Virus genome (UHGV): UHGV-0293664
DNA length: 64,000 bases
Reading direction: 5' to 3' (one strand)
Origin: a virus
In this document: piece by piece, positions 10,407 to 57,794 of the stretch
How the letters are laid out: the number at the start of each line of letters is the position of its first letter
Position numbering within the stretch: position 1 is the first letter of the stretch
Position numbers and translations under genes: made by a program
The notes under the pieces: model-generated
What the model was told of the DNA's origin: nothing
The model's database searches: none
The model's input: the letters and a program-made list of their open reading frames with translations, nothing else

Positions 10407-10434
10407 AAAGGGGCCGTTTGGCCCCTTTCTTTTT
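10407..10434. terminator. bidirectional intrinsic terminator between convergent gene blocks
   Basis: AAAGGGGCCGTTTGGCCCCTTT hairpin flanked by A-run and T-run. Confidence 0.75.
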
Positions 10435-20054: not shown

Positions 20055-20348
20055 ATGCCACTTAAAAGAGTAATAAGCATGTTATACCAGAAACACAAAC
20101 TTTGTGCAGAAAAAGAGTTAAATTTTGACAAAGTTATCCACAGATATTGTTATGGGAAAACCGGAAGACAACTAAGAAGGTGTACCCCAACATTCTTTCA
20201 CCCCAGTAGACGGCTAAGTCCTGAAGAAGCAACAGCAGAAAGGGTTGCATACAACTGGGAAGTTGTGTACGATATTGACAGATCCGATGTGGCATCTGTT
20301 TTGGAAAACTTTGAAAACACTTACACACAAGTAGAGGACTTTTACTAA
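20055..20348 (+). CDS. hypothetical basic protein
   Basis: 97 aa from ATG 20055; stop overlaps ATG of next gene (TAATG). Confidence 0.5.
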   Translation: MPLKRVISMLYQKHKLCAEKELNFDKVIHRYCYGKTGRQLRRCTPTFFHPSRRLSPEEATAERVAYNWEVVYDIDRSDVASVLENFENTYTQVEDFY

Positions 20349-21532
20349 TGTCAAGAAACGTATTTGAAAGTGGTCAAATCACTGTCCGTGAGTTGCCAGC
20401 TATCATTCAGTTTGCCCAGCGTCATAACCGATCTGTCCTGATTTTAGGACCAATGGGCGTGGGGAAGAGCCAGGTGATGAAGCAGATTGCCGATAATATG
20501 TTCGGTGAGCGAGATGACAACCTGGTTGACGTGCGACTGTCAGATAAAGATCCTGCCGACTTATCTGGGCTACCTATCCCTGTAGAAGCGGATGGAACTA
20601 CACGTACAGTGTTTGCAATTCCAGAATTCTGGCCTGCAGATCCAGACTGGAGCGGGATTATCTTTCTGGATGAGCTTACTCATGCAGATAACTATCTACA
20701 AAAGGTTGCAATGCAGATTATGCTCGACCACAAGTGCGGCACCTATGCATTCCCTAAAGGCTCTGTTTTTGTGGCTGCGGGTAACCGTTCTACAGATGGT
20801 GCGGTTCTTTCGGCGCTCGAAGCCCCTCTGGCTAACCGTTTTATCATTGTAGAAGTTACAAGCAATGCAGAGGTGTTTATTGAGGACTACGCATTCCTTA
20901 ATGGGGTGCATTCCTCTGTAATTGGGTATCTGAAAAGAGTTCCATCAGCTATCGATAATTATGAGGCTATGGCTGAGATTAATTGTCCATCTTTTGCCAC
21001 ACCGCGATCTTGGGTTGCTGCATCTGACATCTTGCACGATTTTGACAGCGGTATTATTTCTGACGCTATGGCCCGTGTTCTTCTGCAAGGTGCTATTGGT
21101 CACACTGCAGCGGTAGAGATCTGGACCTACCACACCAAGAAACGCAACTTACCGGAAATCGGTCGGATTATGGCAGGGGGTTGCAAAGAATACGTAGGTC
21201 CTAAACAGCCAGACATTTTGTGGATTCTTGGATCTGAAGGTTGTATCGCTATTCGTAATATGATGGAAAATGCAAGTATCTCCGACGAAGATCTTGTCAG
21301 CTGCGTGGCAAACTTCCTCGATTTCCTTTGGGAAAACTTCAAAGACGAGAACCGAGATTTTGTATTCTCAGTCTTTATGGCGATGATGAAACCTAATGCC
21401 TTAGGAAATGCCTTGCTTATCGGTAAAGGGCGTGACAAGATTGTTGCTCAGCTGATCAAAGCATACCCAAACCTGATGAAGATTGTAAAAGAGTTTGGTG
21501 AAGAGTTTAGCGCCATTTTGGCTAAAGCTTAA
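20348..21532 (+). CDS. MoxR-like AAA+ ATPase
   Basis: 394 aa; Walker A LILGPMGVGKSQ; Walker B IIFLDELTHA; AAGNRS and LANRF motifs. Confidence 0.85.
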   Translation: MSRNVFESGQITVRELPAIIQFAQRHNRSVLILGPMGVGKSQVMKQIADNMFGERDDNLVDVRLSDKDPADLSGLPIPVEADGTTRTVFAIPEFWPADPDWSGIIFLDELTHADNYLQKVAMQIMLDHKCGTYAFPKGSVFVAAGNRSTDGAVLSALEAPLANRFIIVEVTSNAEVFIEDYAFLNGVHSSVIGYLKRVPSAIDNYEAMAEINCPSFATPRSWVAASDILHDFDSGIISDAMARVLLQGAIGHTAAVEIWTYHTKKRNLPEIGRIMAGGCKEYVGPKQPDILWILGSEGCIAIRNMMENASISDEDLVSCVANFLDFLWENFKDENRDFVFSVFMAMMKPNALGNALLIGKGRDKIVAQLIKAYPNLMKIVKEFGEEFSAILAKA

Positions 21533-21541
21533 GGGGGTTGT

Positions 21542-21922
21542 ATGGCTAAAGTAGGTAAGCGGGGAAACTACCTGGTGGTATTGACCGAGGAGCCAGAGAA
21601 GGAGTACGAATGCAGCTCCACTTGCGTGATCGATATCCGAGAAAAAGATGTAGATGAAATCTGGTTTGAAATATTAGACGCTTGCGACAGCAGTGATTAT
21701 TTCTTCATCTATGTCAACGATAAGGCTGGGTTCTTCCATGACGACGGAGAGTTGCCGTATGAAATCTATGAACTTGTAGAGGCTTGCCATCGCGGAGATG
21801 CGGAGTTGTTTGGCCTACGGCTGAAAAGCGGTAAATTCTTCTATCAAGATGAGTGCATGAATCTTCATAACTTTGTAGAGGGAACTTGCAACGATGGAGA
21901 GATTTTGGCACACTACGATTAA
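21542..21922 (+). CDS. hypothetical protein
   Basis: 126 aa; SD AAGGGGG. Confidence 0.75.
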   Translation: MAKVGKRGNYLVVLTEEPEKEYECSSTCVIDIREKDVDEIWFEILDACDSSDYFFIYVNDKAGFFHDDGELPYEIYELVEACHRGDAELFGLRLKSGKFFYQDECMNLHNFVEGTCNDGEILAHYD

Positions 21923-21933
21923 TTTCTAAGACA

Positions 21934-21960
21934 CCCCGCTTCGGCGGGGATTTTCTATTT
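21934..21960 (+). terminator. intrinsic terminator
   Basis: CCCCGC-TTCG-GCGGGG hairpin then ATTTTCTATTT. Confidence 0.7.
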
Positions 21961-21969
21961 GGAGTTATT

Positions 21970-22470
21970 GTGAAAATTAAGATCTTTGCTATTATTTTGA
22001 GCGCATTTTTATCGCTGCCTGTTGTTGCAGCACCAAAACAAAAAGTATATCATACTTGCAAGCCCTCAGATACTAAGGAAAACATTCTGGCATGCAATAT
22101 CTACAGGGAAGCTAGAGGGGATGGCACGATGGGTATGCTGGCATCTGGGTTTGCCACACTAAACAGGAAATCTCACCCCAAATACCCAGACACTATAAGA
22201 AAGATCGTCTACCAACCTAACCAGTTTTCGTGGACAAACCACGGCAAAACTTTTAAGGTGACAGAAAAAGATTCATGGGATCACGCTAAAAGTCTTGCAA
22301 AGATGCTTCTAAAGGTCTATAATAACAACCATGTTGCATACATGGCTATGGATATAACAGGTGGAGCAACACACTACCATACAACCAAAGTACGACCGAA
22401 ATGGGCAAAAAAGATGCAGAGGACAGCTCAATTCGGGAACCATATCTACTACAAGGAGCGCAATAAATGA
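21970..22470 (+). CDS. SleB-like cell wall hydrolase with N-terminal signal peptide
   Basis: GTG 21970 after GGAG; MKIKIFAIILSAFLSLPVVAAPK signal-like N-terminus; YREARGDG...LNR...YQPNQFSW matches Hydrolase_2/SleB pattern. Confidence 0.7.
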   Translation: MKIKIFAIILSAFLSLPVVAAPKQKVYHTCKPSDTKENILACNIYREARGDGTMGMLASGFATLNRKSHPKYPDTIRKIVYQPNQFSWTNHGKTFKVTEKDSWDHAKSLAKMLLKVYNNNHVAYMAMDITGGATHYHTTKVRPKWAKKMQRTAQFGNHIYYKERNK

Positions 22471-24449
22471 TCGTAAACAGTAATGAAACTAAAGCGGTAC
22501 TGACCGGGAATATGGAGGTCACCAGGGGCTCAATTTCTCTGAACAAAGAGACTTTTGGGCTAATCATTAAAGGGATTTACGAAGATAAGGTGCTGGCAAG
22601 CTGCCGTGAACCAATCTTCAATGCTGTGGACTCCCATGTTGAGTCTGGACGGGGTGATGTACCGATCATCATTCACTCTCCTACAGACCTTGAACCATAC
22701 TTCTTTGTGCAGGACGTTGGATTGGGCATGTCAGAAGAGATGGTCCGTAACACTTTCATGAACCTCGGGGAGTCAACCAAGCGCAACAGCAACGCCCTGG
22801 TTGGCAATAAAGGTGTTGGTTCAAAGGCCCCGTTCAGCATGGTGGACACTTTCGATGTGATCAGTGTGCACAATGGGGTTGAAAGCACATATCTATTGTT
22901 CTTGGATCAGGGTATCCCAAACGTTACCAAGATCCGCGAGCGGAAGACCGAAGAGCACAATGGGGTAAAAGTTCAGTTCCATGTTAAGAAAGAGCATGTT
23001 CTGAAATATCGCACTGCTATTGCGTCATGCCTACGCTATGCAAAGTTTCCGTTTACCGTTACCGACCCTATGACCAGTAAGATGCTGGAAGGTGACAAGG
23101 TTGAGGCGCAGTATCACTACGAGAAGGATGGTTGGAAAATGACCATCCTGAAAGGTTATACCAGCTCTGATGAGAGCCGTGTGGTGATGGGACACCAACC
23201 TTACCGCTCTAAGTTCCTGGAAACATTGACAGACTACCCTGCAATCTGTGTGGAGATCCCTATCGGGGATTGCAATATTAACCCTGGGCGCGAATGGACC
23301 ATAGAGGGTCACGACGATGGTGGATTCCAAGAGCGTCTGGAGGCTTTTGTCAAAGAGGGTATCCGTCTTCGTGGGGCAGAAGTTGTTGCGGAATTGGAAA
23401 CAGCAAAAACATCCTCAGAAGCACGCGAAATGATGAAGAACAGCGGAGTGTTCGGGCACATCTTCGGTAAGAATTTTATGTGGGAACGATGGGAAGAGAC
23501 AGGCCTAGGAAATTTGGGGGACTGTGAGATCTTCGCTGGCGGCTTAAATAAAGGCCGCATAGGTTACGCTTGTTACGGAAAGGTAGAATTCTTACGGGGA
23601 GTCTATTTAGTATTTAACGACGGAGACGGCAAATATAACCGAAATAAGTGTAACTACTTAAGCGAGATCACCGGACGCAACGTTTTCTATTGCCGGAACA
23701 CGGATCTGGTGAAAGAGTTTAAAGAGGCGGCACACCATCCGTTCTTTGCAGATACGATCAAATTGTTATCAGAGCTCCCTCGCCGACCTGCGAAGAAAGG
23801 TGAAACAAAAACTCATTATGAGCCAGGCTATTGGGTTAAAAAACTTGAGGATGATGGTTACTTCCGTCGTGAGCGTATTACTAAGGCAGAGTTCAAGAAG
23901 ATTAAGCACTGCATTCCTTATGAGGGCGATATCCAACGTGGAAGTTGTTGGCTGGGACAGCTGAGTAACATCTACCAGCAAAATTATGACCGTGTGCGTG
24001 CGGCACTCCAAATTCCTGAAGGTGAAGATCTGTACTTGGTATCAGAATCTCGTCTGCTTTGGACTGATCCTGATTGCCAGTATGTTACAGAGAAGAGTGT
24101 GGAACATTTGTTGAAAGAGGATGCTTGGAAATTCTTACTGACTCGCGCAGCAAATGAAACCTCATATGACAGCCTGTATAGACAATTAGGGAAAATTATC
24201 CCCATGCAAGATTTTGGAAATTATCGGCCACATTTCCACAAGTGGGAAGGTAACACCGCGTGGAAGCACAGTGAGCTAAATCATCGTGCCAAAATCTTAA
24301 TCGCCAACCGAGTTAAGTGCGGGAAGGCCTATATTGCAAGATTGGAAAAGAAATATCCACTTTTGAAGCATGTGGGCTTGAAATATTGGGACACTCCTGC
24401 TATGATTGAATACCGTGAACTGATTGATACAAAGAATAACACCAACTAA
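22467..24449 (+). CDS. GHKL-type ATPase domain protein
   Basis: 660 aa; Bergerat-fold motifs: N box E..FNAVDS, G1 VQDVGLGMS, G2 GNKGVGSKAPFS. Confidence 0.8.
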   Translation: MIVNSNETKAVLTGNMEVTRGSISLNKETFGLIIKGIYEDKVLASCREPIFNAVDSHVESGRGDVPIIIHSPTDLEPYFFVQDVGLGMSEEMVRNTFMNLGESTKRNSNALVGNKGVGSKAPFSMVDTFDVISVHNGVESTYLLFLDQGIPNVTKIRERKTEEHNGVKVQFHVKKEHVLKYRTAIASCLRYAKFPFTVTDPMTSKMLEGDKVEAQYHYEKDGWKMTILKGYTSSDESRVVMGHQPYRSKFLETLTDYPAICVEIPIGDCNINPGREWTIEGHDDGGFQERLEAFVKEGIRLRGAEVVAELETAKTSSEAREMMKNSGVFGHIFGKNFMWERWEETGLGNLGDCEIFAGGLNKGRIGYACYGKVEFLRGVYLVFNDGDGKYNRNKCNYLSEITGRNVFYCRNTDLVKEFKEAAHHPFFADTIKLLSELPRRPAKKGETKTHYEPGYWVKKLEDDGYFRRERITKAEFKKIKHCIPYEGDIQRGSCWLGQLSNIYQQNYDRVRAALQIPEGEDLYLVSESRLLWTDPDCQYVTEKSVEHLLKEDAWKFLLTRAANETSYDSLYRQLGKIIPMQDFGNYRPHFHKWEGNTAWKHSELNHRAKILIANRVKCGKAYIARLEKKYPLLKHVGLKYWDTPAMIEYRELIDTKNNTN

Positions 24450-24459
24450 GGAGACCAAG

Positions 24460-25665
24460 ATGATTTTCATCTACGAACATTTCAAAACTCGTAAAGAAGC
24501 ACGTGACCGCCGTGCAGAACTTGAGAAGAAGGGTTTCACATGTGCCATTGAGAAAGGTGATACAACCTGGACACTAGCAGTTGGTGCCCCAGAGCTGTTC
24601 GATCCTGACCGTGACAGCGTCTGCTACACCCGTGAGGATTTTGAAACCCGTGAAGAGGCCCGTTTATTTCGATATGGGCTGGAAGATAACGGTAAGTACG
24701 CCATGATCTTAGACTTAGGCGAAGGTTCCGTTAAACGTTGGGGCGTGGTATACCCACTGTGTGTTGTTCACGGTGTGGGGTTCACTGGTGTAGCAATCAA
24801 GTCAGAAGAACCTTTAGTAGAAGTCAAAGATCCGGTGCTGGAGGTGGTGAGCAGTGTGTCTCAGCAACAGACTCGAAGCATCGAGCCTTTGGTAGTTATT
24901 TGCGGAGAACTCCTCCAGATCACCTGCAACGAAGGCATTTTTGAAATTCGCCGCAGTGAAAGTGAGGAAGTTTACCAGAAAGTCTTTGACCATATCTCTG
25001 TTCAGGAATATGACGAGGCAATTGGTGAAATCCTTGTCTGGCTGGAACGCAAGAATGAGTTCACCACACTTGCAGACAACTTGATCATGAAAGATGGCAA
25101 GCTCTACTACTACGGCGTAGAGATGCGATCCACTATTGCAAAGAAAATTGAGAAAGACTATGCAGACGGAACATTGGATGACCGCTATGTGAAATTCCTC
25201 GTTCGACTGCTACGCAATCCATCTGCAAAATCTGTAAACATGCTCTACGATTTTATGCAGGCCAATGATATTCAGATTGCAGAAGATGGTCGAATCATTT
25301 GCTACAAAGGCGTTCAGTTTAACGGCAGCAAGTGGGTGGATTGGCACAGTGGTAAAGTCCCACAATACCAAGGTGCTTTTGTATCCATGCCTCGTAACTT
25401 TGTAGAGGATGATCCTGAAGCTGCGTGCTCCTATGGCTTACACTGCGCCAGCAAAGAGTATGCAAAGAGCTACGGCACTGTAATGACTGTTATGGTTGAC
25501 CCTGCAGATGTGGTTAGTGTGCCATACCAACACAATAGCGCTAAGTGCCGTGCATGCCGCTATGAGATTGTGGTAGCTCCGGAAGCACGCAAGGACGGCG
25601 ACCCGATTGAATACGTGGTTGACCGAGACGGTAACACTATCGACATTCTTTACGAGGAGGCGTAA
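24460..25665 (+). CDS. hypothetical protein
   Basis: ATG 24460 preceded by AAGGAG (track start 24424 is TTG inside upstream gene); 401 aa. Confidence 0.8.
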   Translation: MIFIYEHFKTRKEARDRRAELEKKGFTCAIEKGDTTWTLAVGAPELFDPDRDSVCYTREDFETREEARLFRYGLEDNGKYAMILDLGEGSVKRWGVVYPLCVVHGVGFTGVAIKSEEPLVEVKDPVLEVVSSVSQQQTRSIEPLVVICGELLQITCNEGIFEIRRSESEEVYQKVFDHISVQEYDEAIGEILVWLERKNEFTTLADNLIMKDGKLYYYGVEMRSTIAKKIEKDYADGTLDDRYVKFLVRLLRNPSAKSVNMLYDFMQANDIQIAEDGRIICYKGVQFNGSKWVDWHSGKVPQYQGAFVSMPRNFVEDDPEAACSYGLHCASKEYAKSYGTVMTVMVDPADVVSVPYQHNSAKCRACRYEIVVAPEARKDGDPIEYVVDRDGNTIDILYEEA

Positions 25666-46824: not shown

Positions 46825-46853
46825 GCCCCGCCATTGTGCGGGGCTTTTTATTT
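46825..46853 (+). terminator. intrinsic terminator
   Basis: GCCCCGC-CATTGT-GCGGGGC then TTTTTATTT. Confidence 0.8.
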
Positions 46854-48500: not shown

Positions 48501-48532
48501 GGCGGCGGCATATTTGCCGCCGCCTTATTGTT
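48501..48532 (+). terminator. intrinsic terminator
   Basis: GGCGGCGGC-ATATTT-GCCGCCGCC then TTATTGTT. Confidence 0.75.
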
Positions 48533-48560
48533 AAACAGAACTGCAAAAGAGGTACATAGA

Positions 48561-48932
48561 ATGGAATTTATTATTTTGGCTGTATTGGTTGCCTTGTTTA
48601 ACGCCTGGATTGCTGGCAAGATGGGCAGATCCGCCTTTTTATGGTTTATTATATCTATTTTCCTGGGGGTGGTTGCAACTATTGTATTGGTTATCCTTGC
48701 AATTGTTGACAAGGGGAATAATAGAAAGGGTAAAGTATTTTCAGACCTGTACGACGCTCAAACGTTTGTCAACGCATATTATAGTGATCTTCCAGTCTCC
48801 CTACGCTGCAGCCTGGCACAACAAGTTTTCGATGAGGCTAAAACCAGAGATCAAGCCCATGAGATATGTTTAACTGAGGCGGATCGCCTATTTGAGAGGA
48901 ATAGAAAATATGTGGGCCAACCGTTTAAATAA
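48561..48932 (+). CDS. membrane protein
   Basis: ATG 48561 after AAAGAGG; two hydrophobic helices. Confidence 0.7.
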   Translation: MEFIILAVLVALFNAWIAGKMGRSAFLWFIISIFLGVVATIVLVILAIVDKGNNRKGKVFSDLYDAQTFVNAYYSDLPVSLRCSLAQQVFDEAKTRDQAHEICLTEADRLFERNRKYVGQPFK

Positions 48933-49155
48933 TGCCACGTTAATTAATCCCTTTAGTGAAGATTTGAAGCCAGCCGCCTGGCGTGATGGATTCAATACCG
49001 AACGCTTTATTTTCAGGCCTGATCTTGAGGAATTTTATAACAATGGATCGAACAACGACAGAGATAATTTTTCTTGTGATGTGCGTGGTGATGGTACTCC
49101 TGGGGGCCATTGTAAACCACGTCACTACTACCAGGGGGAAAGGGGGAGACGATGA
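48910..49155 (+). CDS. hypothetical protein
   Basis: ATG 48910 after GAGAGG; overlaps upstream gene end. Confidence 0.5.
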   Translation: MWANRLNNATLINPFSEDLKPAAWRDGFNTERFIFRPDLEEFYNNGSNNDRDNFSCDVRGDGTPGGHCKPRHYYQGERGRR

Positions 49156-49271
49156 CACCCAAGGATAAGCCACGCACCAATAAGGCGCGCCGTGTTATGG
49201 TGTGGCTGGAGATCATCGCCCTTGAAATATTGCTAGGCGTAGGGATGTACTTTATCGCTGTAAGTAACTAA
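49152..49271 (+). CDS. possible small membrane peptide (39 aa)
   Basis: ATG after GGGGGAGA; MTPKDKPRTNKARRVMVWLEIIALEILLGVGMYFIAV; terminator follows. Confidence 0.45.
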   Translation: MTPKDKPRTNKARRVMVWLEIIALEILLGVGMYFIAVSN

Positions 49272-49275
49272 GAAC

Positions 49276-49303
49276 GGCCCCCCGATCATGGGGGCCTATC
49301 TTT
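49276..49303 (+). terminator. intrinsic terminator-like hairpin
   Basis: GGCCCCC-GATCAT-GGGGGCC then TATCTTT. Confidence 0.55.
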
Positions 49304-57410: not shown

Positions 57411-57794
57411 TCACACAGGCTTGATAATACCTTCACCGAATAACTCTTCATATTTAATCTTATCAGGATCCCACTCTTGGATAATTTCGAAGACAATGTC
57501 CAGCCCAGGGATAATCACTTCTCCAGTATCAAGTCTGGCAAGAACAAAACCGGAAGGTTGAATGGTTTCCCAGTTGCGACGATTAGAATAGAGAACTTCG
57601 AAAATATCGCCAACCGCAATCTGCTGATCAAGATGTTCAAGATTTTCTTTCATATAGACGCAGCGGATTTTTCGTGCAGGCCATAGACCGCCTGCATCAC
57701 GTTCATTTAGCTCTTTTACAGTAATCGGTATACCCATCTCAAAATCTCCTTCATAGATAGTAAAAAGAGGGGCCCAAGCCCCTCTCTTTGTCAT
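57411..57794 (-). CDS. hypothetical protein
   Basis: 127-aa ORF with ATG overlapping upstream stop; alternative internal ATG 57737 has AAGGAG SD. Confidence 0.7.
   Translation of the reverse strand: MTKRGAWAPLFTIYEGDFEMGIPITVKELNERDAGGLWPARKIRCVYMKENLEHLDQQIAVGDIFEVLYSNRRNWETIQPSGFVLARLDTGEVIIPGLDIVFEIIQEWDPDKIKYEELFGEGIIKPV

Follow-up and report, generated by a model that had tools for sequence, protein, structure and literature searches.

A stretch of 64,000 nucleotides from the UHGV virus genome UHGV-0293664 (hereafter the window, in whose coordinates positions are given) contains, on the + strand, a gene for a SleB-type peptidoglycan hydrolase with a predicted export signal, placed directly upstream of homologs of rIIA and rIIB. 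The features that define this locus are the following.

21934..21959, + strand: intrinsic-terminator-like hairpin, CCCCGC-TTCG-GCGGGG (21934-21949; 6 pairs, all G-C), followed by the T-rich tail ATTTTCTATT
21961..21964, + strand: Shine-Dalgarno sequence GGAG, 5 nt before GTG 21970
21970..22470, + strand: coding sequence (CDS) of the predicted secreted SleB-type peptidoglycan hydrolase; 166-residue pre-protein, GTG start, TGA stop at 22468-22470
21970..22029, + strand: predicted signal peptide, residues 1-20; n-region MKIK, h-region IFAIILSAFLSL, c-region PVVA, predicted signal peptidase I cut VVA↓AP
22057..22095, + strand: Cys30 (22057-22059) and Cys42 (22093-22095), a predicted periplasmic disulfide (family cysteine covariation)
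22108..22110, + strand: codon of Glu47, the predicted catalytic residue, in the motif Y-R-E-A-R-G-D
22120..22452, + strand: Hydrolase_2 (SleB catalytic) domain, residues 51-161 by Pfam; the structural domain spans about residues 28-163

The open reading frame (ORF) described in an earlier note on this DNA is present as claimed, with GGAG ahead of 166 codons that begin with GTG. A longer form starting at TTG 21886, which appears in the program-made ORF list, was rejected because it would cross the terminator and overlap the preceding gene, annotated relatives having the 166-residue form. The pre-protein has a mass of 19 kDa, and the mature form would be a basic protein of 146 residues (16.9 kDa, pI about 10).

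Catalytic domain and predicted export signal

The product is very probably a secreted, peptidoglycan-cleaving enzyme of the SleB family. Its SleB/Hydrolase_2-type catalytic region, recognised in the earlier note from the letters alone, was recovered by a profile hidden Markov model search (Pfam Hydrolase_2, PF07486, E=6.6e-20, 72 bits against a cut-off of 27, profile positions 2-100 of 100), and the protein also matches PHROG 938, labelled 'endolysin', with E=5e-28. The family was collected by a word-indexed search, which gave 10 proteins, and by an exhaustive search of representatives, which gave 11,602 of them at E<=1e-3. An AlphaFold2 model computed from an 88-sequence alignment has a mean predicted local distance difference test score (pLDDT) of 95, and when this model was submitted to Foldseek the sole significant matches in the PDB were the Bacillus SleB catalytic domains 4FET and 4F55, with template modelling (TM) scores of 0.75-0.79 (4FET_A: E=4e-5, target-normalised TM score 0.79, root-mean-square deviation 2.7 Å). 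Glu47 is invariant in all 88 aligned homologs; its counterpart in 4F55 and 4FET is the first Glu of YGESRGE, the catalytic residue of SleB. R66 and W145 are the other invariant positions of the alignment, and nine further positions conserved in at least 90% of it (Y45, R49, G55, N65, Q85, F86, S87, H158 and Y161) are all present in the hydrolase.

The resemblance to Bacillus SleB, the spore cortex lytic transglycosylase, thus covers both the fold and the motif Y-x-E-(A/S)-R-G-(E/D). However, identity is only 24%, the N-terminal PG_binding_1 domain is missing (Pfam detects Hydrolase_2 only), and a short N-terminal strand of the phage protein is stapled by the predicted Cys30-Cys42 disulfide. 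In addition, the phage enzyme must act on vegetative Gram-negative peptidoglycan and not on muramic-delta-lactam cortex. Orthology to the germination-specific cortex-lytic enzyme was considered and rejected on the lack of PG_binding_1, the length of 166 residues and the host, a non-sporulating enterobacterium; the hydrolase is a member of the SleB family, not a SleB ortholog.

The signal-peptide-like N-terminus reported in the earlier note shows the tripartite n-h-c pattern. A heuristic scan, on which all statements on the export signal of this protein are based, found an n-region with two Lys residues, a strongly hydrophobic core of 12 residues and a Pro in the c-region, with a mean Kyte-Doolittle hydropathy of 2.6 over 15 residues, whereas the best 19-residue window elsewhere in the protein reaches 0.36, so that a hydropathy scan of the whole protein gave no second hydrophobic segment. 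Cleavage after Ala20 is the sole site fitting the -3/-1 rule; at the alternative site, VAA↓P, a Pro at +1 would block cleavage. Neither a lipobox nor a twin-arginine motif occurs in the hydrolase, and a lipoprotein reading was discarded, there being no lipobox and the first Cys being residue 30. By its predicted tripartite N-terminus and signal peptidase I site, the hydrolase would belong with the Sec-exported (signal-peptide) phage lysins.

The same kind of N-terminal segment was found in about 80% of 160 scanned family proteins (150 representatives and 10 closer homologs). In Seunavirus, phi92-like, Certrevirus, FBKp34, T5 and many metagenomic relatives the n-h-c pattern is kept while its sequence diverges, as is typical of signal peptides, and the cut sites read ...PVLA↓KE in Seunavirus, ...VAQA↓EA in the phi92-like phage, ...ASALA↓KE in Certrevirus and ...SSQA↓SH in T5. 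Published SignalP predictions of a signal peptide exist for two homologs: Cwh of Aeromonas phage ASG01 (PMC10975977) and the Certrevirus ortholog CB7_83, which was also stated to be toxic in E. coli ('data not shown') and to have homologs across all Vequintavirinae genera (PMC7344957).

Also considered was an uncleaved signal-anchor-release (SAR) or other membrane anchor, which would tether an inactive enzyme until depolarisation. The uncharged stretch of 17-18 residues and the proline that would block the VAA↓P cut are compatible with it, as is a homolog from phage PAK_P4 whose transmembrane domain (TMD) has no positive n-region or obvious cut site. We nevertheless regard an anchor as improbable, since 10 of the 17 positions of the h-region are I, F, L or V and none is Gly, a composition (and a hydropathy) unlike that of the Gly/Ala/Ser-rich SAR domains. 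Moreover, the segment is short, with a helix-breaking Pro and a compliant VVA↓A site at its end, the AXA sites of relatives are of textbook form (SQA↓S, VLA↓K, AQA↓E, AHA↓K), and the gene is not adjoined by a small membrane-protein ORF, while SAR endolysins are usually paired with a pinholin. In the PAK_P4 homolog itself (gp154 of this Pseudomonas Pakpunavirus, L006 3824-4384), the n-region that precedes the N-terminal TMD is acidic and not basic (METLEALVLSILLAFIGMFLDME...); within this enzyme family, that protein may represent a variant that is anchored or of the SAR type.

A further indication of localisation comes from the cysteines, which are strictly paired in the 88-sequence alignment: C30 occurs with C42 in 24 sequences (and in 8 more in which the first Cys is alignment-shifted), C39 with C77 in 51, and neither pair in 4. 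The hydrolase and its clade form the C30+C42 class. Such covariation points to a structural disulfide and therefore to an oxidising compartment, an independent argument for export; by this covariation, Cys30-Cys42 is predicted to be a periplasmic disulfide.

Export also bears on the suggestion, made in the earlier note, of an enzyme used at entry. A virion-associated hydrolase piercing the wall as the DNA enters would account for a muralytic domain in a myovirus, but a Sec-exported, processed protein leaves the cytoplasm, where virions are assembled. The product is, in addition, a small stand-alone protein encoded outside the structural module, and relatives already possess a baseplate gp25-like lysozyme and a spike 'tail lysozyme' (PMC7344957). 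A role at entry is therefore very unlikely, to the point of being negligible.

Gene neighbourhood and the other lysis genes

The 7 kb around the gene are 96-97% identical to more than 80 GenBank genomes of Vequintavirus (rV5-like coliphages). The hydrolase is 98-99% identical to annotated Vequintavirus proteins and, in translated searches, was found at an identity of at least 95% in 116 records, where the gene is labelled 'cell wall hydrolase', 'cell wall hydrolase SleB', 'SleB' or 'endolysin'. It corresponds to the 'cell wall hydrolase SleB' of the Vequintavirinae (rV5, FV3, PVP-SE1, CR3_087, CB7_83; PHROG 938), being the same gene in the same place before rIIA-rIIB. Its immediate neighbours are:

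20348-21532, + strand: MoxR-like AAA ATPase, upstream of the hydrolase gene
21542-21922, + strand: conserved 126-residue protein of unknown function, upstream, the last gene before the terminator
22467..24449, + strand: rIIA homolog, 660 residues, with a GHKL ATPase domain (HATPase_c_3; PHROG 612, E=5e-124)
24460..25665, + strand: rIIB homolog, 401 residues, from ATG 24460 (the program-made ORF begins at TTG 24424); PHROG 609, E=1e-61; annotated in phage nomine

Further downstream follow a PIF1-type helicase, methyltransferases, a primase/helicase and a DNA polymerase, so that the assignment of the gene to the replication module in the earlier note is a fair one. The stop codon of the hydrolase overlaps the rIIA ATG as ATGA, with no gene between, and the two genes are therefore presumably translationally coupled, the hydrolase being the first gene of a coupled sleB-rIIA-rIIB string. 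The order sleB-rIIA-rIIB-helicase is kept in three lineages, and the adjacency to rII is absent from the phi92-like, FBKp34, T5 and PAK_P4 phages. A literature search for Vequintavirus transcriptomics gave nothing usable; it is from the gene neighbours only that an early/middle temporal class can be proposed for the hydrolase.

This setting can be cited for a non-lytic function, in which the enzyme would remodel the periplasmic wall in superinfection, envelope stress, growth or muropeptide turnover, perhaps in connection with rIIA/rIIB. The gene lies in an early/middle block and is coupled to rIIA-rIIB; in the Vequintavirus EdH4, whose hydrolase is 98% identical to the present one, the rII genes act against Rex, rIIA/rIIB being needed only against it, in competition with prophages (PMC11879866). 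By the same token, the downstream partners of the hydrolase would be conditionally useful accessory genes too. Retention of the gene in every matched Vequintavirus record, despite a separate endolysin, agrees with such a function. Yet the analysis brought no positive evidence for such a role, superinfection control (raised in the earlier note) included; no exclusion or remodelling mechanism is known that employs a secreted SleB-type enzyme, and the adjacency to rII is limited to related lineages. Together with the nature of the partner gene described below, these points make wall remodelling a possibility that we consider unlikely, though still to be reckoned with.

The rIIB homolog shows a feature of its own at the N-terminus, where the first ~100 residues (window 24460-24760) form two tandem beta-alpha-beta-beta-like repeats (FKTRKEARDRRAELEKKGF... 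and FETREEARLFRYGLEDNGK...). These gave a sub-threshold match to the Pfam SPOR domain (E=0.0015, 19.3 bits against a cut-off of 21), which may be a resemblance of fold only. SPOR domains bind denuded glycan strands, a curious trait to meet beside an enzyme that cuts glycans.

Other lysis genes were located in WalterGehring, a complete relative of 141 kb. Its i-/o-spanin genes are neighbours of the terminase gene; it also encodes a gp25-like baseplate protein, a spike 'tail lysozyme' and, adjoining the DNA ligase gene, a separate 'endolysin' of 156 residues, which is homologous to the lambda R transglycosylase over its full length (MKLDKNVQRKAFLDMIAYSEGTDNG...) and has no hydrophobic segment. 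In the announcement of phage LL12 by the Center for Phage Technology, gp90 is named as the endolysin and no holin was identified (PMC6658697); LL12 gp90 is this lambda-R-like gene. No lambda-R-like endolysin or spanin gene was found within the 64-kb window, which equals about 37-104 kb of WalterGehring. Since relatives carry a separate lambda-R-like endolysin and spanins, the SleB-type protein would be a second muralytic enzyme. Of the proposal in the earlier note that it may be the endolysin, exported by the Sec route, the Sec-exported lysin stands and is better cast in an accessory form; as the sole or main endolysin it is not supported, genomes of the same genus having a curated lambda-R-like endolysin, and spanins next to the terminase.

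The same note saw no holin next to the gene, and indeed no small membrane-protein ORF flanks it. The hydrolase is thus without a canonical lysis-cassette setting: an export signal is present, the neighbours are a hypothetical gene and rIIA, and the spanins and the lambda-R-like endolysin are elsewhere. Seunavirus, Certrevirus and the metagenomic L012 differ from Vequintavirus in this respect, in that a small ORF with two TMDs directly follows the hydrolase gene, encoding 57 residues in Seunavirus (L005 4536-4709), 65 in Certrevirus (L008 3028-3225) and 76 in L012 (L012 4583-4813). The Certrevirus ORF overlaps the hydrolase gene, an overlap noted earlier for CB7_82 (PMC7344957). In Seunavirus and L012 the C-terminal tail of the small protein is charged, and the ORF precedes rIIA-rIIB-helicase. 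No mutual similarity was detectable among the three proteins, which is typical of holins, though not proof; all three are candidates for holins or pinholins. In Vequintavirus, no counterpart was found at E<0.1 by tblastn and phmmer among ORFs of at least 30 residues from the 64-kb window and from positions 1-50 kb and 95-140.7 kb of WalterGehring. This comparison suggests that a holin-like partner may have been lost in Vequintavirus. That the conserved partner gene, where present, is holin-like points to lysis and so speaks against wall remodelling.

The partner genes can also be cited for a different view, namely that the hydrolase is the principal endolysin, holin-independent, Sec-exported and gated by de-energisation, with the lambda-R-like protein as the accessory. 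The holin- or pinholin-like ORF of the sister genera is attached to the SleB-like and not to the lambda-R-like gene (PMC7344957); the lambda-R-like enzyme would need a holin, yet rV5-like phages have no identified one (PMC6658697); expression of a signal-peptide-bearing homolog is enough to lyse E. coli (PMC10975977); neither muralytic gene lies within a lysis cassette; and the PHROG 938 label is 'endolysin'. On the other hand, the lambda-R-like protein is homologous over its full length to a proven endolysin and is the one that curators name the endolysin, and the weak expression signals ahead of the hydrolase (terminator, GTG) fit an accessory enzyme better. We consider it unlikely that the hydrolase is the principal lysin, a judgement to which phage T5, treated below, adds.

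Several small membrane-protein genes were recorded in the course of these searches. The ORF of 68 residues directly downstream of the lambda-R-like endolysin (L003 34862-35068, - strand; WalterGehring bas51_0210, LL12 gp91) begins with a segment resembling a signal peptide or that of a lipoprotein (MKDFLLAILFMAACLACG...) and is not a holin with 2-3 TMDs, so that no obvious holin adjoins the canonical endolysin either. Within the window (48501-49300), several small membrane-protein ORFs cluster after a strong terminator hairpin at 48501-48524; this is a possible place for a holin in rV5-like phages. PHROG scans of the small membrane ORFs in the window returned only families of 'unknown function'. 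The ORFs of the cluster are:

48528-48932: small membrane ORF, 2 TMDs, PHROG 13090
48983-49168: small membrane ORF, 1 TMD
49152-49271: small membrane ORF, 1 TMD, PHROG 13629

The upstream hairpin and start codons

A strong terminator before the gene had been pointed out in the earlier note and is readily confirmed in the hairpin at 21934-21949 with its T-rich tail. The stem lies 20 nt upstream of the GTG, the tail ends about 2 nt before the ribosome-binding site, and a stretch of 50 nt folds with a minimum free energy of -14.6 kcal/mol. By strict criteria (perfect-stem, GC-rich, terminator-like), the + strand of the 64 kb has 8 strong hairpins, roughly one per 8 kb, and, of these, the present one is the sole intergenic case in the run of roughly 17 kb of same-direction genes to which the hydrolase belongs.

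A hairpin directly 5' of the ribosome-binding site was found in seven of the eight lineages folded, whose homologous proteins are only 33-53% identical. In six of the eight it is GC-rich and terminator-like, namely in Vequintavirus, Seunavirus KE22, Certrevirus F5M2A, Klebsiella phage FBKp34 (where a terminator is annotated), Pseudomonas phage PAK_P4 and the metagenomic L012. T5 has a hairpin of 10 bp at the same position without a T-run, and the phi92-like phage alia is the only lineage without one, a sigma-70-like promoter lying there instead. Given the base rate of roughly one strong hairpin per 8 kb, this recurrence is not a matter of chance. The hairpins of the relatives are at these positions:

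L005 3965-3990 (Seunavirus): upstream hairpin
L008 2457-2485 (Certrevirus): upstream hairpin
L009 2445-2470: upstream hairpin
L006 3782-3805 (PAK_P4): upstream hairpin
L012 3964-3985 (metagenomic): upstream hairpin
L004 3899-3925: upstream hairpin

Also, five of nine lineages begin the gene with GTG or TTG; the start codon of KE22 is our own reading, the deposited KE22 CDS beginning downstream and omitting the signal peptide. A scan for sigma-70 promoters over the gap between terminator and start plus 100 nt upstream gave none upstream of the start, and the single sigma-70-like site reported, at 21968-21995, overlaps the GTG and the first codons. The combination of hairpin and weak start looks like a conserved dose control of a toxic secreted enzyme.

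Proposed accessory lysis and comparison with known lysins

The closest tested homolog is ASG01 Cwh, which has the same architecture of signal peptide and Hydrolase_2 domain and alone lyses E. coli; alanine changes at C34, C72, E42, N60, R61 and S82 abolish or reduce this lysis (PMC10975977). With a constant offset of 5, these residues map to columns 39 and 77, E47, N65, R66 and S87 of the hydrolase. Cwh differs in belonging to the C39/C77 class and in being reported as the only recognised lysin of its phage, whereas the present phage would also have a lambda-R-like endolysin.

Lysins of Gram-positive hosts offer further parallels. Lys44 of Oenococcus phage fOg44 has a signal peptide and is exported without a holin. 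The closest documented analogue in logic is Tgl of Kayvirus, a signal-peptide lysin beside a main endolysin. This extra lytic enzyme has lytic-transglycosylase motifs and an early-type promoter, lyses E. coli on expression, needs a holin-mimicking de-energiser in S. aureus, and was proposed as a partner of LysK (PMC7150955). The catalytic folds of Tgl and Lys44 are unrelated to that of the present enzyme, which, unlike them, is known here from its sequence.

T5 encodes a 'cell wall hydrolase homolog' (T5p081 / T5.083) that is about 40% identical over the catalytic domain, has a signal peptide (SQA↓S), lies in the early region and is accompanied by a separate endolysin/holin pair. It differs in its cysteine class (C39/C77), in the lack of rII neighbours and in its hairpin, which has no T-run. 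In a genome-wide CRISPRi-ART screen of T5, the SleB-like T5.083 and the endolysin lys (T5.040) were each scored 'Not Fit' and the holin (T5.041) 'Fit' (PMC11879866, supplementary file 16). These data are weakly consistent with redundancy of the two wall hydrolases, or with incomplete knock-down. The coexistence of the T5 homolog with a proven Lys/holin pair, and its neutral knock-down, argue against the present hydrolase as principal endolysin.

Taken together, we favour, with a confidence only a little above even, the reading of the Sec-exported SleB-type enzyme as a dose-limited, holin-independent accessory lysin beside the lambda-R-like endolysin. A role as accessory or second lysin is supported by the hairpin and weak starts, by the neighbours with two TMDs in sister lineages and by the conserved order sleB-rIIA-rIIB-helicase. 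The gene would be transcribed with rIIA-rIIB from the early/middle, replication-side block, and its dose would be kept low by the need to read through a terminator abutting the ribosome-binding site and by the GTG start. SecYEG would export the pre-protein and signal peptidase I would cut it after Ala20, as its N-terminus predicts; the mature enzyme would then fold in the periplasm with the Cys30-Cys42 disulfide that covariation suggests. By homology, cleavage of glycan strands would depend on Glu47, the enzyme probably being a lytic transglycosylase like SleB. Pre-loaded in the periplasm, it could supplement the lambda-R-like endolysin, or stand in for it, when lysis comes and the membrane has lost its potential.

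Several points weigh against this reading. Export, cleavage, specificity and expression timing of this protein and of its Vequintavirus orthologs are all inferred, and it ought to be hazardous for an early operon to keep exporting a wall hydrolase in active form. The terminator may merely mark the end of the upstream unit, the promoter scan described above having found no promoter for the gene. The T5 evidence is weak as well: several T5 genes known to be important were also scored 'Not Fit', and knock-down may have been incomplete.

A broader scenario, which we put forward as doubtful, would take the secreted SleB-type enzyme, the dose-limiting hairpin and weak start, and the two-TMD protein of the sister genera as an ancestral second, potential-gated lysis pathway of the Vequintavirinae. 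In Vequintavirus the two-TMD partner would have been lost and the enzyme wired instead to rIIA/rIIB, proteins of membrane integrity. If true, this would account for the failure to find a classical holin in rV5-like phages, and it would give the rII proteins a concrete client, as they would keep a pre-exported lysin silent until the proper time.

The gene itself is already known, being annotated in more than 100 nearly identical genomes, with a published signal peptide for an ortholog and a tested homolog. The additions made here are small: the paired-cysteine covariation, the hairpin at the ribosome-binding site across lineages together with the weak starts, and the suggested loss of a holin-like partner in Vequintavirus. 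The cysteine pairing and the layout of hairpin and weak start are hints on localisation and dose control, and neither changes the classification. Practical value is also small, as this is a routinely annotated accessory muralytic gene of commonly isolated therapeutic and biocontrol coliphages. If the accessory-lysin model is true, it bears on how rV5-like phages lyse cells without an identified holin, and on why rV5-like, phi92-like and T5-like virulent phages keep a self-exporting SleB-type enzyme beside the main endolysin.

Two observations were made elsewhere in the window. At boundaries of gene blocks (10407-10428, 46825-46844 and 57766-57785) lie hairpins whose stems are perfect and GC-rich and which, having a T-rich tail on either strand, resemble bidirectional terminators. 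Just after the tail-fibre chaperone gene, an ORF on the + strand (1236-1550) encodes a protein of 104 residues with an N-terminal TMD and a long coiled-coil-like region (PHROG 5345, unknown function), whose topology resembles that of an i-spanin or a type II membrane anchor.

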